Position numbers and translations under genes: made by a program. This document shows positions 28,622 through 41,342 of a DNA stretch of 64,000 bases, in pieces. The notes under the pieces are model-generated. The model ran no database searches. It was not told where the DNA came from and saw only the letters and a program-made list of their open reading frames with translations. Source of the stretch: an uncultured Mageeibacillus sp. (GTDB taxonomy: Bacteria > Bacillota > Clostridia > Saccharofermentanales > DTU023); assembly GCA_964606165.1 (NCBI GenBank), contig CAZSFQ010000001.1, forward strand, positions 74,278 through 138,277, read 5' to 3'. Position 1 is the first letter of the stretch. Every line of letters starts with the position of its first letter.

Positions 28622-29785
28622 TTAGTCGGCACCGACCCGCGGCACACGCTCACTGATACCGCAAAATAGTTCGTAATCGATGCTACCGTAGAGATCGGTG
28701 ATTTCGCTTGCGTCCTTGCGGATCCATTCATCCTGGCCGAAAAAGGTGACCTGATCCCCGACCTTGACATCGTCAAGCCCGGTGACATCAACTATGCACC
28801 GATCCATGCAAACGCGGCCCCGGATAGGAAGCTCCCGGCCCTTGTGGAAGAAGGAACCACAGTTGGAGAGCAGCCGGGGCAGGCCGTCAGCATAACCCAT
28901 GTTGATGACAGCCAGGACGGAATCAACCGGCGTCGTCCAGGTTCCGCCATAGCTGACCCGCGTTCCCGCGTCCACGCCCTCCACCTGTTCGATCAGACTT
29001 TTAACGGTCATGACAGGCTTGAGCCCCGGCCAGGCTTCCTTGTCCGGGCCGGCCCTGCCTCCGTAGAGTACGATGCCGGGACGGACCAGATCAAAATGAT
29101 AGTCAGGCCCAAGAGGGATGGCCGAGCTGGCGGCCAGATGGCGGATCACGCGGGGAAAGCCTCGTCTTTCTGCCTCGTCCACGGTGTCAGCGAAGCGTTG
29201 TCGCTGCAATTTCGCGTAGTCAGGGTCGCAATCGGCGGTTGCCAGGTGCGAATAGATGCCGGTCACTTTAAGCGACGGCTCACGCGCGGCAGCCAGGATA
29301 ACCTGTACCGTCTTCTCCCTGTGCCTTTCATCTGCCTTCAAGCCCAGCCGGGTCATACCGGTATCGAGCTTGATGTTAACTTCAAGCGGAGGGCCCCCTG
29401 TTTTTTCGGACTGACGGGCAAATTCCGCCACTTCCCCGGCTGTCACGATCGACTGGGTCAGCCGGTAACGTTTGAGGTAGGGGATGTGCTGGCTCCTGGT
29501 TGCCCCAAAAATCAAAATGGATGATCGCGCGCCGCCCTGGCGCAGGGAGATGGCTTCATCCAGGGTCGCCACAAAGAGATGGCGAATGCCCGCTTCTTCC
29601 AGAAGCGGCACGACGAGTTCAACACAGTGACCGTAAGCATTGCCCTTGATCACGGGCGCCATGCCGATCCCCGGGCCGCCTATGTGCGACCGGATGACTG
29701 CCAGATTATTGACAAGGGCGCTTCTGGAAATCTCCGCCCAGACCTTCTTTGTATACCAGGGATCCTTGTCCTGCGAGCACTTCAT
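28622..29785 (-). CDS. alr: Alanine racemase
   Basis: WAEISRSAL, PLP-Lys motif IKGNAYGH, KLDTGMTRLG, YSHLATAD, VRPGIVLY, GYADG, GRVCMD and IDYELFC. Confidence 0.93.
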   Translation of the reverse strand: MKCSQDKDPWYTKKVWAEISRSALVNNLAVIRSHIGGPGIGMAPVIKGNAYGHCVELVVPLLEEAGIRHLFVATLDEAISLRQGGARSSILIFGATRSQHIPYLKRYRLTQSIVTAGEVAEFARQSEKTGGPPLEVNIKLDTGMTRLGLKADERHREKTVQVILAAAREPSLKVTGIYSHLATADCDPDYAKLQRQRFADTVDEAERRGFPRVIRHLAASSAIPLGPDYHFDLVRPGIVLYGGRAGPDKEAWPGLKPVMTVKSLIEQVEGVDAGTRVSYGGTWTTPVDSVLAVINMGYADGLPRLLSNCGSFFHKGRELPIRGRVCMDRCIVDVTGLDDVKVGDQVTFFGQDEWIRKDASEITDLYGSIDYELFCGISERVPRVGAD

Positions 29786-29804
29786 GGCATTTTTACATCT
29801 TTCG

Positions 29805-30866
29805 TCAGATCAGCTTCTTGGTGACATAAGGTGAGGTCATGGCCCGAAGGAGCGCCGCGTAGTCGGGGGAGAAGTCCAGCACATCGCCTACCTTGAAATC
29901 GCGCAGGGCCAGGCTGACATCCAGGATCATATGGTCACTTGAGGCGCCAAGGAAGCCGATATGGGCTTCTTTCGGCGTGAGGGTGTCGCAGCGCGTGTCC
30001 TGTTCGCCGATGGCAAGAATCGCGCGCCACAAGTTCCCGTGGTCTTCAAAGACAGGAATCTCATTGAAGGAATTGGGCCCGATCTTGCCTTGCGGAACCG
30101 AGGGTTTTCGCCTGAGCTCTACGATTTCAGCCCGCAGCGTGAAGACATCTTCATACATATCACCAATGGCCAGCCTGTAAGAAGTCTCAACACCCGTCAG
30201 GAAACCTTCCCCGATGCGAAGATGCGTAATGCCTTTTGGCATCCGGCCTTCCTTGAGTAAATAGAGAGAGCCTGAATTGCCCCCCGAAACGATGGGGAGG
30301 GGAATGGCGAACCGCTCGCGGATAGCTTCGGCCAGCAAGACCAGCTCTTCCAGCTGCTTTTCTTCCGGGATCACGCCGCCGTAACAGTTGAAATTGGCGC
30401 CGATCCCCGCCAGCCAGACACCGCGCAAATTGAGGACCCGCGACGCGACATCAAGCACTTCCTCCGGCATGAAGCCCTCACGCAGATCACCCATTTCGAC
30501 CATGAGAATGACCCCATGCATGCAGTCGAGGGCAAGGGCCGCGTCAGACAGCGACTCGATGACGGCCAGATCCGAATTAAGACTCAGGTCCGCGTAGCGC
30601 ACCGTGTCCATGGCCTGGGAGATCATGGGAATCCGCACCAGCATACGCGACAGTCCCAGGTCCTGGATGGTGGCAAGGTTCTCGACGCGGGCGTCCGCGA
30701 AGTATTCGGCGCCCGCCTCATGCATGGCTTCAACGACAGGCCGCCAGGCACAAAGGCACTTGGTGACGAAATGGATCTGGATATCCTGGGCCGCGGCCAT
30801 CTTGAGCAAGGTTCCGATATTGTGCTTCAATTTGAAACGATCAATCAGCAATTCTGGTAATGCCAT
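29805..30866 (-). CDS. orr: Ornithine racemase
   Basis: Alanine-racemase-family N-terminal fold (VTKCLC, GDLREG, NFNCYGG, VSGGNSGS, HLRIGE, GASSDH) inside the ora cluster. Confidence 0.88.
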   Translation of the reverse strand: MALPELLIDRFKLKHNIGTLLKMAAAQDIQIHFVTKCLCAWRPVVEAMHEAGAEYFADARVENLATIQDLGLSRMLVRIPMISQAMDTVRYADLSLNSDLAVIESLSDAALALDCMHGVILMVEMGDLREGFMPEEVLDVASRVLNLRGVWLAGIGANFNCYGGVIPEEKQLEELVLLAEAIRERFAIPLPIVSGGNSGSLYLLKEGRMPKGITHLRIGEGFLTGVETSYRLAIGDMYEDVFTLRAEIVELRRKPSVPQGKIGPNSFNEIPVFEDHGNLWRAILAIGEQDTRCDTLTPKEAHIGFLGASSDHMILDVSLALRDFKVGDVLDFSPDYAALLRAMTSPYVTKKLI

Positions 30867-30881
30867 CTTTACCTCCTGTCA

Positions 30882-32234
30882 TCATTTCGTCAGTGAGTCC
30901 ATCAGGAGCTGGACGGCAGCTTCCGGATAGGTCCTGGCGATGACGCCGCAAGACGCCATCAGGTAGTCTTTGTCTATCATAACATTCACTTGTGGAGGCG
31001 GGAAAAGCCGTTCACTGCCTGCCTTTTGCAGTAGATCTGCGACCAGGGAGGTGACGCCGGCCAGCCGGGTCAGGGCGCCTCCGGTCACGATCAAGGCCTG
31101 GACAGCTGTCAGGTCACGCCCCCGGACCACAGTGCGCCTGCCCCGCGCGGTAAAAATTTCGGTTATACGGCCGGCGTGCCGGTCCAGGGCTTCGCGGCAG
31201 CAGGTTCGTACCAGGGGAAGGATCAGGGCTTCCTCCTCCGGTCCCTGCGGTATTTCCGGAACGCCCTGCAGGCCTTCCGTGTAGTCAGCGGGAAGCTGCT
31301 CCCGCTCGTCAGCAGTCATGGCCTGGATAACGTGATCGCGATTGACGAAAACGCCCAGATCCCCTTCCACTGTCCTTTTCGCGAAGGGTTCGGGGTTGAT
31401 CCGAAAATCGATCAGGGCTTCACTCCCCTCTGTCACTGAATGCACATCGGTGGTTGCCCCGCCTACATCGAGGGCGACCAGGTCACCCAGCACCGGGTAC
31501 ATTCTTTCGGCCATGGCCATGACCGCGCCTGGGGTGGGCATGATGGGACCGGTCACAGCCTGGTGGATATGGGCCATCCCGGGCGCTTCAATGATGTGTT
31601 CCTCGAAAATGGCCTGGATGACGATGCGGGCCGGCCCGATATTGAGATTGTCAAGGGAGGGATAGACATTCCCGGTCACATAGACTTTGACCCGGTATCT
31701 TTCTGCCATGGCCCGGATCTCTTCGTCATTGTCGGCATTGCCAGCGTATAAAAAGGGAGTCTGCGGCATGGCTTGCGCCAGCTTTTCGAAATTGAAAAGA
31801 GCTGTCTCCCGCTCCCCGCCATCCGTTCCCCCCGCGATCATGATGATGCGGGGCTTGGCGGCCCGGACGCGCTCAAGGTCATGTTGACGGAGTTTGCCGG
31901 ATGAAACCATGCGCAGGACCGCGCCTGAGCCGAGCGCCGCTTCACGCGCGGCCCGCACCGTCATCTCGGGCACCAGGCCGTGGACAGTCATGGAAAGTCC
32001 GCCCGCCGCCGAACTGGTCGCGAAGACCTCATGGGCTTCGAGACTCTCCCGGCCCAGCCGGGAGGCGAGACGCTGCCTGGCCAGTTCGAGACCCTGCGTC
32101 ACATCCCCCTGGGGAATGGAGGTCGCCGCCGTTGCCTGTCCGAGGAAACGGGGGCGCCCCTCCTTGATTCCCGTAAACGCATTGACGATTGTCGTTGTAC
32201 TGCCGATCTCAGCGACAAGCAGATCAACTTTCAT
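30882..32234 (-). CDS. GlmL/MutL-like reactivating factor of D-ornithine aminomutase
   Basis: VAEIGSTTT, SSAAGGL, AGGTDGG, MPTPGAV, DVGGATTDVHSV and KRTVEGDLG. Confidence 0.88.
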   Translation of the reverse strand: MKVDLLVAEIGSTTTIVNAFTGIKEGRPRFLGQATAATSIPQGDVTQGLELARQRLASRLGRESLEAHEVFATSSAAGGLSMTVHGLVPEMTVRAAREAALGSGAVLRMVSSGKLRQHDLERVRAAKPRIIMIAGGTDGGERETALFNFEKLAQAMPQTPFLYAGNADNDEEIRAMAERYRVKVYVTGNVYPSLDNLNIGPARIVIQAIFEEHIIEAPGMAHIHQAVTGPIMPTPGAVMAMAERMYPVLGDLVALDVGGATTDVHSVTEGSEALIDFRINPEPFAKRTVEGDLGVFVNRDHVIQAMTADEREQLPADYTEGLQGVPEIPQGPEEEALILPLVRTCCREALDRHAGRITEIFTARGRRTVVRGRDLTAVQALIVTGGALTRLAGVTSLVADLLQKAGSERLFPPPQVNVMIDKDYLMASCGVIARTYPEAAVQLLMDSLTK

Positions 32235-32237
32235 CGG

Positions 32238-34493
32238 TCATGATTCCTCCCGCATTTCCCGCCGCCGCTTGACCAGGAAACTCGCGACATCAATTCCGTG
32301 GCTTCCGCGGCCAAAACCGGCATCCATGCCGGACTCAACGGCCGTCTCATTGGCAACCTGAGTGCCTCCTGCCACCAGAATCAATTGCTCGCGAACTCCC
32401 TTTTCAATACAAGTGTCAGCCAGTTTCCTCATGTTCTCGTAATGGACATTGTTGTGGGAGATGATGGTTGAGATCAGGATGGCATCCGCCTTGGTCTCCA
32501 CGGCCGCGTCGACAAGCTTGTCGACGGGACAGGAAGTCCCCAGGTAATGGTACTTGATCCCAAATCCTTCGATCCCCCCGTGCTTGATGTCCAGAATTTC
32601 TTTCATTCCGACGGAATGCTCATCTTCCCCGACCGTGGCCGCGACAACCGTCAGGGGGCTTTCGTGGACATCTGCCCTGATTTCCGCCTCGGACAGGGTT
32701 TCGATTTCTTCCGGCAGGACCAGCTGCGTCAAATCGATATCAAAGCCTACCTTGCCCTTCATCTCGATGTAGGTGCCCTCAGCCGGATGCATGACCTGGC
32801 TGTGGATGACCTCACACTCGGAAAGGCCCATTTTTTCCCCGATCAGGATGGCCGCCGCCTCCGCGTGTCTTTTATCGCAGGGCAGCAGCATGGTCAGGAC
32901 CAGGGTCCCGTCGGCCAAAAACTCAACTTCAGGCCGGATCAGGTTGGTATTGTCGTAGTACTTCTGTCTTTCTTCAATGCGTACATTGACATTGTCGTAG
33001 TCATCGAGCTCATCGATAAACTGAATCTTGGACGGATCTTCGAAGGTGTCTCCGCCGATCGCTTCGCTGGCTGACTGGAACCGGGGCGGGATCTTGTTGT
33101 TGCCGAAATGGACAGACACAGGCGCGAAGTAGTCATCGGCCCGGCGGTAAAGCGTGTCGTTGCCGATTCCCCCGTCGAGTTCGCGCGCGATGCCGTCACC
33201 CTTGCGGTCGGGATACTCGGCGCTGTCAACGAAGAAACCTCCTTCAACTGCGCTGTAGTAGCCGCCTGCCTCAATGATCTCCTCCATGAAGAGGATGGCC
33301 CGCTCCTTGAGCTCCCGGACACGGTCGCCCAGGGGCCCGTCGCGATTGATGTCCACCATCTGTCGGATGCCGTCCAGGCCGTTGAGGCTCTGACGGGCCG
33401 TGTTGACCGCGTTGATGTTGAAGTAGTGCCAGGGCACATTGCGCCCTTCATCAGGCGTGATGGTTGACTGGACGTCGGCCGATGTCAGCCGGGAGATGAC
33501 CATGTTGAGCGTATGCGTCACAGTCGCCTCGCGTGTCTCCGACTCCATGTACTTGGTGTTTTGCTGGGCCCGGATCTTGTAATCGCGGAAGAAATCGCGC
33601 AGGGCCACCGCGTAGGGCAGGTCAAGCCGCATGCAGGGCGCCGGCGGCGCCGTCGGCGGCACACTTGACAGGGCAATATTCTCCGGCTTGATCCCGCACC
33701 GGACTGAAAAGGCAGTATTGATGGCGTGCTGGACCATGAGTTCCGGCATCACCTTCCAGGCTTCCATGGCGGTCGCGTTGGCGTTGTGGGCGCCATCGAT
33801 CTGCAGCTGGCCGCCGTAGGCGATGATGGCCTTGCTCTCGCAGGCGTCAACGAAGCTTCTCAGCATGTTGATGTTGCGGTAGAGCACGTTGTATTGCGGA
33901 TCCTGGTGTACACCGGATACGCCTTCCTCAACAAACATGACGGCGATGTCGGGACCGGCTACCCCTGAAACATAGGAATGGTAGTTGATGGGTCTGCCGA
34001 CCTCATCTTCAATCAGGTCCAGGGCCCGCCGTGTGGCCCGGCATTGTTTTCTGGTGATGGGAATGCCGCCGATCCCCTGGGTGGTCCCTTCGATCAGGGA
34101 ATCGATGTGGGACTGGCCGGTTGTCCGGATGACCATGACATGGTCGGCGCCGGCCCAGGCGGCCATCCGCATACGGCGGACATCGTCTTCAAAACGTCCG
34201 GACGCGATTTCCGTCGTGATCACACAGTCAGGCTGCGGGTCAATGTAACCAAAGCCGCGGCTTCCGGGCAGGGGAACCGACTGTTTCAGCGGTTTCGATA
34301 CTTCATAGTAGCTGAAGTCACCCACCTGTCTCTCTTGATCGCGCTCCTCGCGCCAATGCCAGGGCCGGCGCGGCGAGTGATAATCCTCCAGGCCTTCCAG
34401 GATCTTGCGGATGTCCAGTCTTTGATCCGGCTGGAGTGAAAGGGTGGTTTCACGCGCCGGCACAAGACGGTCTTTTTTCTCCCTGCCGCTCAT
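32238..34493 (-). CDS. oraE: D-ornithine 4,5-aminomutase large subunit (PLP/B12)
   Basis: TEIASGRFEDDVRRMRMAAWAGADH, HQDPQYNVLYRNIN and the B12-binding GEDEHSVGMKEILDIKHGG. Confidence 0.95.
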   Translation of the reverse strand: MSGREKKDRLVPARETTLSLQPDQRLDIRKILEGLEDYHSPRRPWHWREERDQERQVGDFSYYEVSKPLKQSVPLPGSRGFGYIDPQPDCVITTEIASGRFEDDVRRMRMAAWAGADHVMVIRTTGQSHIDSLIEGTTQGIGGIPITRKQCRATRRALDLIEDEVGRPINYHSYVSGVAGPDIAVMFVEEGVSGVHQDPQYNVLYRNINMLRSFVDACESKAIIAYGGQLQIDGAHNANATAMEAWKVMPELMVQHAINTAFSVRCGIKPENIALSSVPPTAPPAPCMRLDLPYAVALRDFFRDYKIRAQQNTKYMESETREATVTHTLNMVISRLTSADVQSTITPDEGRNVPWHYFNINAVNTARQSLNGLDGIRQMVDINRDGPLGDRVRELKERAILFMEEIIEAGGYYSAVEGGFFVDSAEYPDRKGDGIARELDGGIGNDTLYRRADDYFAPVSVHFGNNKIPPRFQSASEAIGGDTFEDPSKIQFIDELDDYDNVNVRIEERQKYYDNTNLIRPEVEFLADGTLVLTMLLPCDKRHAEAAAILIGEKMGLSECEVIHSQVMHPAEGTYIEMKGKVGFDIDLTQLVLPEEIETLSEAEIRADVHESPLTVVAATVGEDEHSVGMKEILDIKHGGIEGFGIKYHYLGTSCPVDKLVDAAVETKADAILISTIISHNNVHYENMRKLADTCIEKGVREQLILVAGGTQVANETAVESGMDAGFGRGSHGIDVASFLVKRRREMREES

Positions 34494-34858
34494 GACACCA
34501 CCTCCCCGAAGAGTTCTTGCGCCTCTTTCCAGTATTTGCCTTCTGCCAGGGCAAGGCCTGTGTCACGGATCTCCATGCCAAGTTTCTCCGACAGACGCCA
34601 GACAAGATGGCCCGCGCCGTGCGGAAGCAGGCGGTGTTCAGTGGCGCCGCTGACGATGGCCTGCGCCTCCAGGCTTGAAAAGCCCATGCGGAGAAGGATA
34701 CTGCGTTCAATGGCCGGTGTCGTATAAATCCTCCCCGCCTCGACGAGGGGGTCGACGATCTTCCCGGCCAGTTCCCAGAAATAGTCATAAAGCGCCTGGT
34801 CGGACATGCCCTCCAGATGCTTTCGCCTTTCTTCAAATTTTTGATCTGTCACTCTCAT
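34490..34858 (-). CDS. oraS: D-ornithine 4,5-aminomutase small subunit
   Basis: FEERRKHL...LYDYFWELAGKIVDPL...TTPAIERSILLRMGFSSLEA. Confidence 0.93.
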   Translation of the reverse strand: MRVTDQKFEERRKHLEGMSDQALYDYFWELAGKIVDPLVEAGRIYTTPAIERSILLRMGFSSLEAQAIVSGATEHRLLPHGAGHLVWRLSEKLGMEIRDTGLALAEGKYWKEAQELFGEVVS

Positions 34859-34876
34859 CCCTCCCTTTGTTTCTGC

Positions 34877-36274
34877 CTAAAGGTCGCGGAGCAAGGCTTC
34901 GGTCTCTTTGGCACCGAGATTGATCTCGGCCGCCATGTAAAGGATCTCTTCCCCGGACCACTGGTCACGGCCTTCCGCCATCCGGCGCAGCGCGGACAGC
35001 CTCAGTCGCCCCATGTCATAATCGCGGACGCGGATCATGGAGGGGTGGGACGGAAGCACGATGGACTGTCCGGCGATCTCTTCCTCCGGGTCACCAAAGT
35101 AAATATCAATCCCGTTTTGCCTTGCGAATGTCAGCTGGGGCATGGGGTGCTTGCCCGCGCCTGTGTATTCGGTCTCCTGGACAACAATGGTCTGGTTTTC
35201 AGGCAGTTCACGCGAAAGCGCGAAGGCTGCCGCCAGTGATGTATTCCCGGCAGGTCCCCGCTCGATCCCCTCCAGGGATGCCAGCATCTCCGTAGTGTAG
35301 AAAACCTCACCCTGCTTAACCAACAGATAGCGGTCAATGTAGCGGAGCGCCCGTGCTGCATTGCGCGGCACATCCGAACGGTCAGGCAGGGAGGCAAAGG
35401 GGATGCCGAATCCCGTATGACCTGTGGTAAAGGATTTACGGTTGAAGTCGCGGTCGGATGCCATGGACAGGCCGGAAAGATCAACGCTGGCAGCGTATAC
35501 CCTGGTATCCTTCAAGCCCGCCTTGATCAGACCGCGGGCGGTCCCGGTCAGGTTGCCGCCCCCTGCGTGGGTCACCATGACGATTTCGGGCACGAGATCA
35601 TAGTCCTCGCGGCATTGCCGGGCAATCTCGACTCCCAGGGTCTCAATCCCCGCGATGGCTGAGGGGGAGTAAAGGGAGGCATTGTAGAAACCGGTTTCCT
35701 CAAGCAGGCTGAGCGCGTAGTAGAAAAGTTCCGGTCCTACGGTCATCTGGATAACCTCGGCCCCCAGGGCTTCACATTTGCGCTGTTTTTCCAGAATCTC
35801 CGGCTGCCCCTTGATCCCGCTGTCGTAACACTCCTGGATGACGATGCACTTGAGCCCCAGCCGGGCGGCCATGCTGGCAACCGCGGCGCCGTAGTTGCCG
35901 GATGTCGCGGCAATGACGCCCTCATAGCCCTTGCGCCTGGCGTCCCAGACAGAAAGAGCTGCCCGGCGCGCCTTGAAGCTTCCCGAAGGGTTGGCGGCCT
36001 CATCCTTGACCAGGATGCGGGCGCCATAGCCCGGTTTGGCAAGTTTTCTTGCCAGGTCTGTGATATTTTTCATATCCATGAGCGGCGTATTGCCGACGCC
36101 CATGTCTTTTTGGATCCTGGCCACTTCATCGACCGTGATTCCCACATCCGCCATCATGGCCTCGTAGTCAAAGACGATGCCACCGCCTTCATAGTCGCTG
36201 TAATCGATCCCCAGGGCCTTGCCCATGATCTCATTTTGTCTGGCCATGACGGCTTCATAAGTCATATCTTTCAT
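34877..36274 (-). CDS. ortB: 2-amino-4-oxopentanoate thiolase beta subunit
   Basis: GVGNTPL, KDEAANPSGSFKARRA, ATSGNYGAAVA, THAGGGN, DRSDVPRNAARALRY and QETEYTGAGKH. Confidence 0.93.
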   Translation of the reverse strand: MKDMTYEAVMARQNEIMGKALGIDYSDYEGGGIVFDYEAMMADVGITVDEVARIQKDMGVGNTPLMDMKNITDLARKLAKPGYGARILVKDEAANPSGSFKARRAALSVWDARRKGYEGVIAATSGNYGAAVASMAARLGLKCIVIQECYDSGIKGQPEILEKQRKCEALGAEVIQMTVGPELFYYALSLLEETGFYNASLYSPSAIAGIETLGVEIARQCREDYDLVPEIVMVTHAGGGNLTGTARGLIKAGLKDTRVYAASVDLSGLSMASDRDFNRKSFTTGHTGFGIPFASLPDRSDVPRNAARALRYIDRYLLVKQGEVFYTTEMLASLEGIERGPAGNTSLAAAFALSRELPENQTIVVQETEYTGAGKHPMPQLTFARQNGIDIYFGDPEEEIAGQSIVLPSHPSMIRVRDYDMGRLRLSALRRMAEGRDQWSGEEILYMAAEINLGAKETEALLRDL

Positions 36275-37635
36275 CGGCCGTCACCTCCAAACAGCATGTC
36301 CCGGACCTGCTGGTGAATGACCTGCAGTTCGGGAATGTAGTCACCATAATCATGCGACGGCGCGAGGTCTCGGCTGGTCAGGCTGCCTTCAACCGTGCGG
36401 CCGCTCATGGTTTGCACGCGGACACGCTCCCCTGCCTTGGCCGCCTCAAGGAGCCAGCCTTTTGTAAAGGCGATCAGGGGCGTCTTGGCTGTGTCCTCAG
36501 GAACCTGAGGCGCCCGCTGCCCGACAGGGAGAACAGTCTCCTGGATGACGGCGTAATCGCCCTTCCTGAAATCTGTCTTTCTGTCTCGATCCAGCTGCTC
36601 GGCATAGTTGCCTAAAATCGCTCTTGGCACGGGCAGGTCCAGCATGGAACGCAGGCCCGGTTTGGCGGAGAGCACATGGGGAATCATATTGACTACCATG
36701 GCGATGGTTCCGATCCCGCCCGGCGTCTCGGGGACGATGGACAGGTTCATATCGTAGCCGTCGGCGTGAATGGTGACGTAATCACCGGTATTGACCCCTT
36801 CATCCTCGGGGCAGATCTGCTGCGGGTGATCGAGATGGATGAAAACCTTGCCATCCGCCGTCCGTCCGTAGCTCTGCTGGCGGATACCGGCCAGATGGCC
36901 TTTTTTCGCCTCCCCGTAGGCCGATTTTCGGTCGACATTGGTAATGATTGGTTCCCGGGTCTGCTCGATGCTGGTCAGTTCGACTCCCATGCCGGCGGCG
37001 ATCATTTCCATGGACTCTGGGAAACCAACGTGGCCGGCCAGGCTGTCTTCAGCGATGCGGCGGTCGAACTCCTCCACGGGAATACCGACACCCTGCTCCT
37101 CCATGACCGCCTTGCCGAAGGGAGCCAGGTCATTGATCCGCGCCGCGTCGATCGATTCGACGTGTTCACAGGTCCCGCTCACAGCCAGGATCAGGTAGTC
37201 GAGGACGAAGCCGGGGTTGATCCCCGTGCCAAGCACCGCCACCTTGCGCTGTCTGGCCAGGGCGTCGATCCTGTCCGACATTTCTTTATTCTGGGCCCAG
37301 GGCCAGGCCATCTCCTCAGCGGTTGAGATAATATGGACACCCTGCTCCAGGCAGAAGATGAGTTTGTCATACTGGGCTTCGACAAAGGAGTCGGTCGCCA
37401 GGATAACGATATCGCAAAGGTCATTACGGACAACCTCGGTGATGTCACCGGTGATGATGACGGGCGGCCGGTCCCCCCGCTCAATGCCCAGATACGAATA
37501 GACTTCCTGACCGATGAGTTTGTCCCACCGGTCGCAAACACCGGAGATGACAAGCCCCTCCTTGGAGGCGATCATCTTTCCGATGCCGCTGCCCATGGCG
37601 CCGAAACCCCACAAGGCCACCCTGATATCCCGCAT
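36271..37635 (-). CDS. ord: 2,4-diaminopentanoate dehydrogenase fused to the AKP-thiolase alpha subunit (Ord-OrtA)
   Basis: N-terminal WGFGAMGSG, STAEE, LGTGINPGF and GGIGTIAMVVNMIP (Ord); the C-terminal ~100 aa KGDYAVI...RAPQVPEDT.KTPL...KGWL...GRTVEG...HDYGDYIPEL is OrtA-like; single ORF. Confidence 0.9.
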   Translation of the reverse strand: MRDIRVALWGFGAMGSGIGKMIASKEGLVISGVCDRWDKLIGQEVYSYLGIERGDRPPVIITGDITEVVRNDLCDIVILATDSFVEAQYDKLIFCLEQGVHIISTAEEMAWPWAQNKEMSDRIDALARQRKVAVLGTGINPGFVLDYLILAVSGTCEHVESIDAARINDLAPFGKAVMEEQGVGIPVEEFDRRIAEDSLAGHVGFPESMEMIAAGMGVELTSIEQTREPIITNVDRKSAYGEAKKGHLAGIRQQSYGRTADGKVFIHLDHPQQICPEDEGVNTGDYVTIHADGYDMNLSIVPETPGGIGTIAMVVNMIPHVLSAKPGLRSMLDLPVPRAILGNYAEQLDRDRKTDFRKGDYAVIQETVLPVGQRAPQVPEDTAKTPLIAFTKGWLLEAAKAGERVRVQTMSGRTVEGSLTSRDLAPSHDYGDYIPELQVIHQQVRDMLFGGDGR

Positions 37636-37688
37636 ATGCTACCCTCCTCCCTCCTGGCAACTGGTGCCTGCTTGGTGCTGAACGAATA

Positions 37689-38609
37689 TTACAAACTGAT
37701 GTGTGTCCCTGTTTTCCCCGCGATCCCGTCCCGGGCGCGTTCCAGTGAGGTGATCAGGGCGGTGCGGCCCTTGCCGGACTTGGCGAAGGCAACGCTGGCC
37801 TCCACTTTCGGCAGCATGGACCCGGGCGCGAAGTGCCCTTCTTTCATGTATTGTTCCATTTCGGCGGCCGTGACGCGGTCCAGCCACTTCTCCTGCGGCT
37901 TGCCGTAATGCAGGGCCACTTTTTCAACGGCTGTCAAAATGATCAGATAATCGGCGTCGACAATCTCCGCCAGTATTTCTGAAGCGAAATCCTTGTCAAT
38001 GACGGCGGCCACACCTTCCAGATGATCTCCTTCACGAACCACGGGGATGCCCCCGCCGCCAACTGTGATGACGACCTGACCGTCACGGATCAGGGCGTTA
38101 ACCGTCCGGTCTTCAACCACAGCGACCGGTTTCGGTGAAGCGACCACGCGGCGGTAACCGCGTCCGGCATCCTCTTTCATGATGAAGCCGGTTTTCTCCG
38201 CGATCTGCTCCGCTTCTTCCTTGCTGTAAAAGGAGCCGATCGGCTTGGTCGGATCCTGGAAGGCGGGATCATTTTTGTCCACCACAACCTGGGTCACAAC
38301 GGTCGCGACGGGCCTGTCCAGGCCGCGCGACAGCAGCTCCTCGCGGAGCGCGTTTTGAAGGTGGTAGCCGATGTAGCCCTGGCTCATGGCACCGCATTCC
38401 GGAAAGGGCATGGCCGGGACCACGCCGCTGTCAAAGGCCAGGTTGATCATGCCAACCTGCGGTCCGTTGCCGTGGGCCAGGACAAGTTCATGCCCCTCGG
38501 CGATTAAGTCCGCGAGGGGGACGGCCGTCTGGCGTACAAGTTGGCGCTGTTCCTGCGCTGTATTGCCAAGGGCGTTGCCACCCAGGGCGACGACGATACG
38601 TTTTTTCAC
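37689..38609 (-). CDS. arcC: Carbamate kinase
   Basis: VALGGNAL, HGNGPQVG, SQGYIGY, DPTKPIG, GRGYRRVVASP, VIDKD and GSMLPKV. Confidence 0.95.
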   Translation of the reverse strand: MKKRIVVALGGNALGNTAQEQRQLVRQTAVPLADLIAEGHELVLAHGNGPQVGMINLAFDSGVVPAMPFPECGAMSQGYIGYHLQNALREELLSRGLDRPVATVVTQVVVDKNDPAFQDPTKPIGSFYSKEEAEQIAEKTGFIMKEDAGRGYRRVVASPKPVAVVEDRTVNALIRDGQVVITVGGGGIPVVREGDHLEGVAAVIDKDFASEILAEIVDADYLIILTAVEKVALHYGKPQEKWLDRVTAAEMEQYMKEGHFAPGSMLPKVEASVAFAKSGKGRTALITSLERARDGIAGKTGTHISL

Positions 38610-38653
38610 AAAGTGCCTCCGTGGTTAAGTATTTAACACTTGCCGTGTTTTTA

Positions 38654-39649
38654 TCAGCGGCCGATTGTGGCGACCATGATCGCCTTAATCGAGTGTAAAC
38701 GGTTTTCGGCCTGGTCAAAGACGCGGGAGTGCTTGCTGCGGAAAACTTCATCCGAACACTCCATGGCGGTCAGGCCGTATTCCTCATGTATCTGTCTGCC
38801 GATGCTCGTATTGAGGTCGTGGAAAGCCGGCAGGCAGTGAAGGAAGATGACGTCGGTGTTGCCGGTCATCTCCACCATTTTCATATTGACCTGGTAATCC
38901 CTCAGCTGGCGGATCCGCTCCTCGAACATGGCCTCTTCGCCCATGGAGACCCAGACATCGGTGTAAAGGACATCAGCGCCTTTGACAATGTCGAGGCTTT
39001 CAGAGCATTCGATGCTGCCACCCGTTTCTTTCGCCACAAGCTTCATCTCCGCGATAAGCCCCTCATCGGGCCACAGCCCGCGTGGCGCGAAGGCGGCAAA
39101 ATCCATACCCAGCTTGGCGCAGCCGATCATGAGCGAGTTGCCCATGTTGTTGCGGGCGTCGCCGGCGTAAACCAGTTTGACCCGGTTGAGGGGTTTCGGC
39201 ACGTACTCGCGGATGGTCATCATGTCGGCCAGGATCTGCGTCGGATGGTAAAGATCCGTCAGCCCGTTCCAGACCGGCACGCCGGCGTGGGCGGCCAGCT
39301 CTTCCACCGTTTCCTGGGCAAAGCCCCTGAACTCAATTCCGTCATAAAAACGGCCCAGTACCCTGGCCGTGTCCTCGACCGATTCCTTCTTGTTCATCTG
39401 CGAATCGCCGGAACCCAGGAAGGTGACCCCAGCCCCTTCGTCCATGGCCGCCACCTCAAATGCGCAGCGCGTCCTGGTCGAGGTTTTTTCGAAAAGAAGG
39501 ACAACGTTTTTACCCTTGAGCAGATCACCGGGAATGCCAAGCCTCTTTTTCGTCTTCAGCTCGGACGCCAGGTCGAGAAGCCATCGGATTTCATCGGATG
39601 AGAAGTCTTTTAGCGTGAGAAAATGCCTGCCTTTTAAACTGATGGCCAT
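38654..39649 (-). CDS. arcB: Catabolic ornithine carbamoyltransferase
   Basis: FEKTSTRTRCAFE, WNGLTDLYHPTQ, YTDVWVSMGE, FLHCLP and AENRLH. Confidence 0.95.
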   Translation of the reverse strand: MAISLKGRHFLTLKDFSSDEIRWLLDLASELKTKKRLGIPGDLLKGKNVVLLFEKTSTRTRCAFEVAAMDEGAGVTFLGSGDSQMNKKESVEDTARVLGRFYDGIEFRGFAQETVEELAAHAGVPVWNGLTDLYHPTQILADMMTIREYVPKPLNRVKLVYAGDARNNMGNSLMIGCAKLGMDFAAFAPRGLWPDEGLIAEMKLVAKETGGSIECSESLDIVKGADVLYTDVWVSMGEEAMFEERIRQLRDYQVNMKMVEMTGNTDVIFLHCLPAFHDLNTSIGRQIHEEYGLTAMECSDEVFRSKHSRVFDQAENRLHSIKAIMVATIGR

Positions 39650-39682
39650 GAATAATCTCCTTTATTTTTGCTAGCCGCCATA

Positions 39683-39711
39683 AGACTAGCCCATAAATAA
39701 AAATAATACAA
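39683..39711 (-). promoter_or_regulatory. Putative internal promoter upstream of arcB
   Basis: TTGTAT-17 bp-TAGTCT in an AT-rich patch ~35 nt before the arcB start. Confidence 0.45.
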
Positions 39712-39991
39712 TTTACGCGCACCAGCGCGTCCCGCGCACTTTTGCCGCTTGCGACCCGGTTGATCCAAGCGGGTCATCGGCGGCCATCTTCCGGGCTTGT
39801 CTTCCTGGTCAAATTCCAGTGCCTTGCCCAAGTCGTGGATATTGGCGATGATCTTGAAAATGATCCTGGCCGGCAGATCAAATGGATATTTCCCCAAAAT
39901 GGGTTCACCATAAATAAAGGAGACAGCTCTGCCTGATCCGGAAAGGGAGGGGCAGGTAAATCCAGCGGTCAAGGCGCGTTTTGAGGACTGC

Positions 39992-41212
39992 CTAGCCGAT
40001 GTCTTCCCGCCACAGGGGCTGGGTCATGCATCGCGGGCCGCCGCGTCCCCGGGACAATTCGGACGACACAATTTCATGGACTTTTACGCCCGCTTCCCGA
40101 AGCAGGCGGTTAGTGACCCGGTTTCGGTCATAGGCAATCACTTCGCCTGGCGCGATGGCCAGGGAATTGGCGCCGTCATTCCATTGTTCGCGCTGCGAAT
40201 CAATCCGGCTCCCCCCGCCGCAGCGGATCAGCTCCACCTCGTTCAAGCGCAGGTAGGTTTTGAGAATGGACGACAGGTTATTTCCAAGATTCTTGATCCG
40301 CAGCTCCTCCCGCGCGTTGACCGTAATGTCGTAGAGTTCCAAAGGCCCCTCGATCTCGGGATGGATGGTAAAGATATCGCGGTCGACCATGGTGAAGACC
40401 GTGTCCAGGTGCATGAAGGCCCTGCGCTCTGGAATCATGAAAACCAGGACATGGCGGAAACCGTCACCAGCTGTCAGAACGCGCTGAGCCAGGGTCTTGA
40501 CCGCCGCTGTTTCCGTTCGCTGGGAGACACCGACAGCCAGGACTTCGCTGGAGAGGATGAGGATGTCGCCCCCCTCCAGGGTGGCGTTTTCCCCGCGGCT
40601 GAAATAGAGGGGGACCTGCTCAAACAAGGGATGGTATTTGATGACATAGTGAGGAAGAAGCGATTCACGCTGCCTGGTTTCCGCCCACATACAGTTGACC
40701 GAGACACCGCGGCCGATGACCGACATGGGATCACGTGTGAAGTAGAGATTGGGCATGGGATCGAAGAGCAGCATCTTCTTGCGGTCGAGCAGGTCGAGCG
40801 AGGTTCCGTTATGCCGGTATTCTTCACGTCTCAAGCCGGCCATGACAATGGTGACAAGCTTCTGTATGTCATCCATGGAGAGCAAATACTCATAAAGGTG
40901 CGGCAGGGACGGCAAAAAGACGTGGGCCTCGCTTAGGAATTCGTTGAGGAAGGCCTGGCGGTGTGCGGGATCGGCCAGCACGTCCGCGACAATGTCGTTG
41001 GTATGGTAGACCTCGGCACCCGCTTCTTCCAGGATAGCGACGAACTGATCATGCTCATCACCGGCTGAGACATGGTCGGGAATGTCTTCGAAAAGAAATT
41101 CTTTCATGGTAGGCGGTGTCAGATTGTCCAGTTCGGGGCCCGGTCGGTGAACAATCACACGCCTCAGCTTCCCGATCTCGGAATACACCTTTACGCCGTT
41201 TCGATCAGCCAT
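39992..41212 (-). CDS. arcA: Arginine deiminase
   Basis: VYSEIGKL, HRPG.EL, PMPNLYFTRD, LEGGD, FMHLDTV, EQWNDGAN and ELSRGRGGPRCM. Confidence 0.96.
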   Translation of the reverse strand: MADRNGVKVYSEIGKLRRVIVHRPGPELDNLTPPTMKEFLFEDIPDHVSAGDEHDQFVAILEEAGAEVYHTNDIVADVLADPAHRQAFLNEFLSEAHVFLPSLPHLYEYLLSMDDIQKLVTIVMAGLRREEYRHNGTSLDLLDRKKMLLFDPMPNLYFTRDPMSVIGRGVSVNCMWAETRQRESLLPHYVIKYHPLFEQVPLYFSRGENATLEGGDILILSSEVLAVGVSQRTETAAVKTLAQRVLTAGDGFRHVLVFMIPERRAFMHLDTVFTMVDRDIFTIHPEIEGPLELYDITVNAREELRIKNLGNNLSSILKTYLRLNEVELIRCGGGSRIDSQREQWNDGANSLAIAPGEVIAYDRNRVTNRLLREAGVKVHEIVSSELSRGRGGPRCMTQPLWREDIG

Positions 41213-41309
41213 AAATACCTCCGGTCAATTGGATGCGACTGGAGAGGGATCAAATTAGGAAATACAGGATTTTGTCAAATTCCCCCTCAGACAAATCCCC
41301 TCGCGACTC

Positions 41310-41339
41310 ATTATAAACGTGTCCGGCAGACATTGGCAA
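41310..41339 (-). promoter_or_regulatory. Sigma-A promoter upstream of arcA
   Basis: TTGCCA-18 bp-TATAAT directly after the V-ATPase D stop codon. Confidence 0.65.
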
Positions 41340-41342
41340 CCA

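Follow-up and report, generated by a model that had tools for sequence, protein, structure and literature searches.

The stretch of DNA analysed here, referred to as the window, comprises 64,000 nucleotides of contig CAZSFQ010000001.1 from assembly GCA_964606165.1, belonging to an uncultured Mageeibacillus sp. It is situated on contig C1 of this assembly, which has 1.58 Mb in 41 contigs and is 93.7% complete. The genus is one of uncultured Saccharofermentanales with genomes of approximately 1.5 Mb. Positions 28622-41212 of the window contain an array of ten open reading frames (ORFs), all on the minus strand and read from 41212 to 28622 as arcA, arcB, arcC, ord-ortA, ortB, oraS, oraE, a glmL-like gene, orr, and alr. 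The arginine deiminase (ADI) pathway, the oxidative ornithine pathway, and an alanine racemase are thus represented in a single array. Each of the ten genes matches the family expected of it in Pfam and NCBIfam searches, the majority above the curated cutoffs:

39992-41212, minus strand: arcA, arginine deiminase, 406 aa (PF02274, E 3.8e-109; NF002381, 462.7 bits, cutoff 414)
38654-39649, minus strand: arcB, ornithine carbamoyltransferase (OTC), 331 aa (TIGR00658, 398.6 bits, cutoff 280.85)
37689-38609, minus strand: arcC, carbamate kinase, 306 aa, GTG start (TIGR00746, 399.8 bits, cutoff 358.25)
36271-37635, minus strand: ord-ortA fusion, 454 aa, one ORF (NF040740, 465.7 bits, cutoff 400; NF040739, 89.2 bits, cutoff 70)
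34877-36274, minus strand: ortB, pyridoxal phosphate (PLP) subunit of 2-amino-4-ketopentanoate (AKP) thiolase, 465 aa (NF040741, 776 bits, cutoff 550)
34490-34858, minus strand: oraS, small subunit of D-ornithine 4,5-aminomutase (PF16552, E 1.9e-44)
32238-34493, minus strand: oraE, large, B12-binding subunit of D-ornithine 4,5-aminomutase, 751 aa (NF040743, 1297.8 bits, cutoff 800)
30882-32234, minus strand: GlmL-related Or-4 protein (PF13941, E 8.7e-140; NF040744, 576.2 bits, cutoff 600)
29805-30866, minus strand: orr, ornithine racemase, 353 aa (NF040742, 423.6 bits, cutoff 480; PF01168)
28622-29785, minus strand: alr, alanine racemase, 387 aa (TIGR00492, 315.6 bits, cutoff 168; PF01168 and PF00842)

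The gaps between these genes, in order from arcA to alr, are 342, 44, 53, -4, 18, -4, 3, 15, and 19 bp, so that from arcB to alr the spacing never exceeds 53 bp. The start of ortB and the stop of ord-ortA share 4 nt. A GGAGG-type ribosome-binding (Shine-Dalgarno) site precedes nine of the ten genes, the exception being alr. No intact transporter gene is present in 28622-41342. A preliminary description of this DNA had claimed ten co-directional, mostly overlapping or tightly spaced genes without a transporter, and the coordinates, family matches, and gaps bear this out, the one wide gap being the 342 bp between arcA and arcB.

Comparison with proteins of known structure agrees with these assignments. 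ArcA, at 465.2 bits, is slightly below the cutoff of 489 for TIGR01078; it matches the Streptococcus pyogenes ADI (4BOF) at 390 bits with the C-terminal catalytic-cysteine motif GGPRCM aligned. In the ord-ortA fusion, residues 4-342 are the 2,4-diaminopentanoate dehydrogenase and residues 357-448 the AKP thiolase subunit OrtA. The Ord domain matches PDB 7XDU, deposited as a 4-hydroxy-tetrahydrodipicolinate reductase, at 381 bits, and OraE matches that of Clostridium sticklandii (PDB 3KOW) at 1096 bits. Alr has the two-domain PLP fold, and its PLP-lysine motif VIKGNAYGH and SYGG tyrosine align with those of PDB 4Y2W. The GlmL-like Or-4 protein is presumed to be a reactivase or chaperone of the mutase.

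The array is conserved throughout the genus. OraE was found in all 22 of the other genus genomes, 21 of these matches being above the family cutoff. In each of the 18 genus loci that were fetched, the order arcC, ord-ortA, ortB, oraS, oraE, glmL-like, orr, alr is kept as far as the contig reaches, and it is therefore not a chance arrangement. Most of these loci have an arcC-ord gap of ~46-60 bp, and usually the ATPase operon and arcA come before and hisE and a metal ATPase after. The gene order is kept in more distant relatives as well. Close OrtB homologues belong to metagenome-assembled genomes (MAGs) labelled Saccharofermentanales, Mageeibacillus, or Clostridiaceae, many of which have sample names of the anaerobic-digester type.

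For a wider comparison, the best 80 of ~600 OrtB loci were taken with 10-kb flanks, 11 of them within the clade and 69 outside it. Among these, the union of arc genes, ornithine cluster, and alr is typical of the clade and rare elsewhere. A complete set of arcA, arcC, and arcB is joined to the ornithine cluster in just 1 of the 69 outside loci, L057, from an uncultured Eubacteriales MAG, and four others have a single arc-like gene near the cluster. The preliminary description had held that the physical union of both pathways with alr is less often described than either cluster by itself, and this synteny comparison agrees with it. The ord-ortA fusion is more widespread; of 62 loci from outside the clade, 16 have it. 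The gene orr follows the glmL-like gene in nearly all of the loci that reach that far.

The array is likely to encode a self-contained route in the cytoplasm by which arginine becomes acetyl-CoA and alanine, its host being a fermenter of peptides and amino acids with a small genome. Transcription would start at the conserved promoter and leader before arcA that are described below. ArcA would convert arginine to citrulline and ammonia, ArcB would convert citrulline to ornithine and carbamoyl phosphate, and ArcC would generate ATP from the carbamoyl phosphate. The ornithine would be kept inside the cell rather than exchanged. Following its racemisation by Orr, OraSE and the GlmL-like helper would turn it into 2,4-diaminopentanoate, which the Ord domain is predicted to oxidise to 2-amino-4-oxopentanoate with the formation of NAD(P)H and ammonia. 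OrtA and OrtB would then produce acetyl-CoA and D-alanine, and Alr would equilibrate D-alanine with L-alanine, linking the pathway to the D-alanine of the cell wall. This order of ADI pathway, oxidative ornithine pathway, and Alr is the one proposed in the preliminary description, and it fits both the family assignments and the physiology of C. sticklandii, which runs the arginine/ornithine sequence, producing D-alanine from ornithine and excreting alanine in both the L and the D form (PMC3091704).

The remainder of the genome offers partners for these steps. Genes for Pta-AckA and for pyruvate:ferredoxin oxidoreductase are encoded elsewhere in it, and a second ATP could be obtained from acetyl-CoA via Pta-AckA. 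Glycine/sarcosine reductase would probably reoxidise the NAD(P)H from Ord in a Stickland coupling, with PntA assisting. Contig C21 carries a gene set for this reductase together with thioredoxin reductase (G000:C21:3604-13973, L127). The alanine may be excreted or transaminated. A search for alanine dehydrogenase gave PntA as the best match in the genome instead. ArcB is the sole OTC in the genome, the one other carbamoyltransferase-like match being a YgeW homologue, and a catabolic role for this OTC is likely because argH was not found in the genome.

All of the chemistry and both pathways are already known; what is new is that they are joined in one layout, that its entry end varies, and that it contains the scar of an importer. 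The ornithine cluster of C. sticklandii and Clostridioides difficile, as given where Fonknechten et al. 2009 is cited (PMC3091704, PMC8803604), consists of orr, oraS, oraE, or-4, ord, ortA, and ortB, and all seven functions have family matches here, those of Orr and Or-4 being just under the curated cutoffs. The order ord, ortA, ortB, oraS, oraE, glmL-like, orr is common to the array and most of the 80 loci compared. In contrast to the C. sticklandii type of cluster, the array has ord and ortA fused, with arcABC added upstream and alr downstream; such a joined array is not described for C. sticklandii in PMC3091704. C. sticklandii has an arginine/ornithine antiporter and, for the reductive branch, an ornithine cyclodeaminase (PMC3091704), whereas neither an APC-type antiporter nor a cyclodeaminase was found here. 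The NhaC-type carrier of the C. difficile operon (bioRxiv 10.1101/2020.01.04.894915) is likewise not in the array. With the arc operons, which consist of arcABC with arcD or arcE (PMC5300872), the array shares homologous, adjacent arcA, arcB, and arcC. Unlike them, it has no arginine/ornithine exchanger, its ornithine would feed a linked catabolic pathway rather than export, and its sister species hold an ATP-driven LivKHMGF-type importer inside the cluster. The survey in PMC5300872 required arcD or arcE for defining arc clusters, and the array contains neither.

In the gut, as in anaerobic digesters that receive protein, one major way in which nitrogen and carbon are turned over is the fermentation of arginine and ornithine, and other species are known to be fed there by the ornithine that users of the ADI pathway export. 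The lineage described here would keep the whole route in one cell and at one chromosomal place, without an exchanger. From its relatives one can see the ways in which a route of this kind is built up and pared down: gain or loss of an importer, loss of arcB, and attachment of alr. No paper dealing with Saccharofermentanales together with arginine and ornithine was found in the literature.

The longest gap in the array holds evidence of how it came to be without a transporter:

39650-39991, minus strand: arcA-arcB spacer, 342 bp, deletion scar of a LivKHMGF-type ATP-binding cassette (ABC) importer, with a livF relic at ~39817-39906

In the sister species G005 and G001, arcA and arcB are separated by an intact five-gene importer of this type, encoded in the same direction. 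Its components are a Peripla_BP_6 binding protein, two BPD_transp_2 permeases, and LivG- and LivF-like ATPases. The genes of G005 are mostly 86-94% identical to those of the window, and the spacer aligns colinearly with the end of the G005 importer cassette, which identifies it as a deletion scar. Spacer positions 39823-39865 (43 bp) match the 3' part of the G005 livF-like gene at 81% nucleotide identity, and positions 39674-39720 (47 bp) match the intergenic region between livF and arcB at 83%. When translated, the relic (...IFKIIANIHDLGKAL...) is identical to residues 192-219 of the LivF-like protein at 17 of 30 positions. The ORF in the spacer has no Pfam match. Reading its motif as the relic of an HD domain was ruled out by the G005 alignment, in which it is a remnant of the LivF-like ATPase. 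The transporter-less array is, on this alignment evidence, a derived state that reflects recent loss of the importer. The preliminary description had explained the missing antiporter by internal use of ornithine. This holds in part, since an exchanger would be of little use to such a route and the loss of an ATP-driven importer fits the same picture; the absence itself, however, is due to deletion, as the LivF relic and the intact cassettes of G005 and G001 indicate.

A homologous importer cassette, with a binding protein 39% identical, is found upstream of alr-ord in Petroclostridium sp. X23, where there are no arc genes. Because this cassette adjoins an ornithine cluster without arc genes, the importer may carry ornithine or some related basic amino acid. 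The Liv-type ABC system is a concrete candidate for basic amino acid uptake in ornithine-fermenting anaerobes.

No other HAAT-family (LivK-type) ABC transporter was found in the window's genome, and searches of the whole genome for an APC-family permease or a polar amino-acid binding protein found none. Several Opp-type peptide-binding proteins are encoded elsewhere in the genome. In a distant relative, L076 (466-7191), an M24 peptidase gene and a complete OppBCDFA set are directly upstream of arcC-ord-...-alr on the same strand. For these reasons the substrate of the array is most likely to be cytoplasmic arginine derived from peptides, entering through Opp-type systems; the alternative entry would be an unlinked carrier of the YfcC/ArcE family. 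The sole YfcC-family carrier (G000:C6:17671-20451, L039) is followed by a same-strand M20 peptidase gene and is not linked to arcABC; the ArcE exchanger, TC 2.A.118, belongs to this family (PMC5300872). Noens and Lolkema proposed a primordial arcABC acting on cytoplasmic arginine from peptides (PMC5300872), with which the use of peptide arginine by the array would agree.

Upstream of the array and on the same strand is a V-type ATPase operon (49867-41343), in which subunits I, C, F, A, B, and D were identified, and an Rnf complex is further to the left. Downstream of alr are a hisE-like gene and then a convergent P-type metal ATPase gene. Two features precede arcA:

41339-41310, minus strand: promoter-like site TTGCCA-18-TATAAT, 11 of 12 matches in the promoter scan, between ntpD and arcA
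41213-41342, minus strand: arcA leader region including the promoter, with a hairpin GAGGGGG...CCCCCTC before the arcA ribosome-binding site

The -35 and -10 of the promoter are conserved in an alignment with five relatives, as are the arms of the leader hairpin (within 41213-41300). The conserved promoter and leader indicate that the array has its own transcription start instead of merely continuing the ATPase operon. At gathering thresholds, Rfam gave no match to a known RNA family, riboswitch, or leader in 27500-51000, and no canonical ARG box (TGAATWWWWATTCA, up to 2 mismatches) occurs within the window. A gene for ArgR is present elsewhere in the genome, on contig C12. The spacing and the lack of any minus-strand terminator-like site between arcB, arcC, and ord make it almost certain that arcB to alr form one transcription unit.

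Several observations weigh against a single, continuous route from arginine. The whole interpretation is based upon homology and synteny in MAGs, and within it Orr (423.6 against 480) and the GlmL-like protein (576.2 against 600) score just below their NCBIfam cutoffs; these families are still the best matches for both, and both genes occupy the canonical positions in the cluster. There is a weak hairpin at 39715-39730 in the arcA-arcB spacer. In the closest relative, G022 (L033:4861-4979), a canonical GC-rich hairpin with a T-run directly follows arcA, pointing to separate transcription of arcA in that relative. With the 342-bp gap and its weak hairpin, this means that arcA may be a separate transcription unit in the present genome also. 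Searches of the 93.7% complete assembly for [FeFe]-hydrogenase, ornithine cyclodeaminase, and alanine dehydrogenase found none of them, and the electron sink and the fate of the alanine are as a result only inferred. As the sole carbamate kinase of the genome (a single tblastn match), ArcC may serve the YgeW encoded elsewhere, in addition to or instead of the ADI pathway. Finally, not every member of the genus has a working ADI pathway in its arc genes. Protein and family searches found no OTC in five genus assemblies, G003 (L022), G016 (L025), G006 (L027), G010 (L028), and G002, all of which have arcC; in the first four, arcC adjoins arcA. The only related match in these relatives is to the YgeW carbamoyltransferase paralogue, which is neither PyrB nor a divergent OTC.

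The arc end is labile in other respects as well. In most relatives the identity of ArcA is 57-65%, compared with ~62-90% for the other genes. The arcA of G009 (G009:C11:273962-275155) is in three matching pieces with an in-frame TGA and is probably a pseudogene, and arcA was not found in G002 or G021. Variants of the 5' end in relatives include arcA-arcC without arcB, arcA-ABC importer-arcB, Opp and M24 peptidase-arcC, and arcA-ord. These differences, the low conservation of ArcA, the terminator in G022, and a promoter-like site within arcC would also be expected if the array were composed of adjoining modules that are used separately. ArcA or arcABC would then serve to produce ATP and ammonia from arginine, arcB-alr or ord-alr would process cross-fed ornithine or citrulline, and adjacency would reflect a history of shared regulation. 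The importer linked to an arc-less ornithine cluster in Petroclostridium is consistent with such separate use, and cross-feeding of ornithine to clusters of this kind is documented (bioRxiv 10.1101/2020.01.04.894915). On the other side, arcB-arcC and arcC-ord are only 44 bp and 53 bp apart with no terminator-like site on the minus strand, and with the importer deleted and no HAAT-family, APC, or polar amino-acid ABC transporter found, internal arginine is the most available source of ornithine. Separate use of the modules is possible, yet on balance it is unlikely.

The same variation could be seen as that of a modular system, with a near-constant core (arcC, ord-ortA, ortB, oraSE, glmL-like, orr, and alr) and exchangeable 5' entry modules. 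The entry modules would be arcA-arcB, arcA alone, arcA with the LivKHMGF-type importer and arcB, and Opp with a peptidase. The Liv-type ABC system would be an importer of ornithine, citrulline, or arginine, and the species lacking arcB would release ornithine from citrulline by another enzyme. The D-alanine from the pathway would be the normal source for the cell wall, with the sole Alr acting mainly from D to L. In all its parts together, this extension is speculative and rather doubtful.

The last gene of the array, alr, is single copy in this genome and the sole alr in nearly all of the 23 genus genomes. Being the only alanine racemase, it has to serve the cell wall too, supplying D-alanine or keeping it in balance. 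Outside the clade, an alr is within 700 bp of the ornithine cluster in 6 of the 69 loci; some lineages have the linked gene upstream, others downstream. Three larger genomes, Petroclostridium X23, G042, and G027, have one or two alr genes in addition to the linked one, whereas in the small genomes G043 and G044 the linked alr is the only copy. In the Alr tree the copies linked upstream group together, and so, separately, do the downstream-linked copies of Saccharofermentanales; two further linked copies are elsewhere in the tree. The linked copies thus fall in separate places, indicating that there were at least two separate linkage events. Repeated linkage of alr to ornithine clusters supports a role for it in D-alanine handling and, by comparison across genomes, favours the view that alanine racemase does work within the ornithine pathway. 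The earlier proposal that alr was recruited to handle D-alanine is strengthened by this repeated linkage and by the extra paralogue in three larger genomes; the sole alr here must, however, be a housekeeping gene as well. That it is positioned at the end of the array purely as the housekeeping racemase of peptidoglycan synthesis, with no special role in the pathway, is improbable. Its status as the sole alr and its lack of a clear ribosome-binding site could be explained in this way. Less readily explained are the adjoining positions, up- or downstream, of alr and ornithine cluster in several unrelated lineages and the additional copies in X23, G042, and G027; the pathway product is, moreover, D-alanine (PMC3091704), the direct substrate of Alr.

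It is very improbable that arcC, and perhaps arcB, mainly serve YgeW as a source of carbamoyl phosphate rather than the ADI pathway. In favour of this, the genome has no carbamate kinase other than ArcC, arcC is found beside ord more often than the other arc genes are, though L046 is without it, and YgeW scores 755 bits here and in G003 with OTC-model matches of ~117 bits and the same length in three other arcB-less genomes. Against it, arcA, arcB, and arcC are all intact and adjacent in the window, arcB is the sole OTC, and argH was not found.

Some further features of these genomes were noted. The YgeW knotted carbamoyltransferase of the window's genome (755 bits) is at G000:C3:95052-96284 (L128:553-1785). 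Across the clade, Alr identity is 46-81%, diverging much faster than the core ornithine genes, and in L046, L048, and L076 the alr in the same position is just 37-38% identical. In the uncultured Clostridia MAG locus L063 (3378-7379), arcA is followed by a gene for an M20-family hydrolase, by alr, and then by ord and the remaining cluster; this hydrolase could be a citrulline-cleaving amidohydrolase. The set on contig C21 consists of GrdX, a GrdE/G-like protein, a selenoprotein-B-like ORF, thioredoxin reductase, and a fused component C beta-alpha. The selenoprotein-B-like ORF ends at residue 349 of the 431-position model, which fits a TGA codon for selenocysteine.

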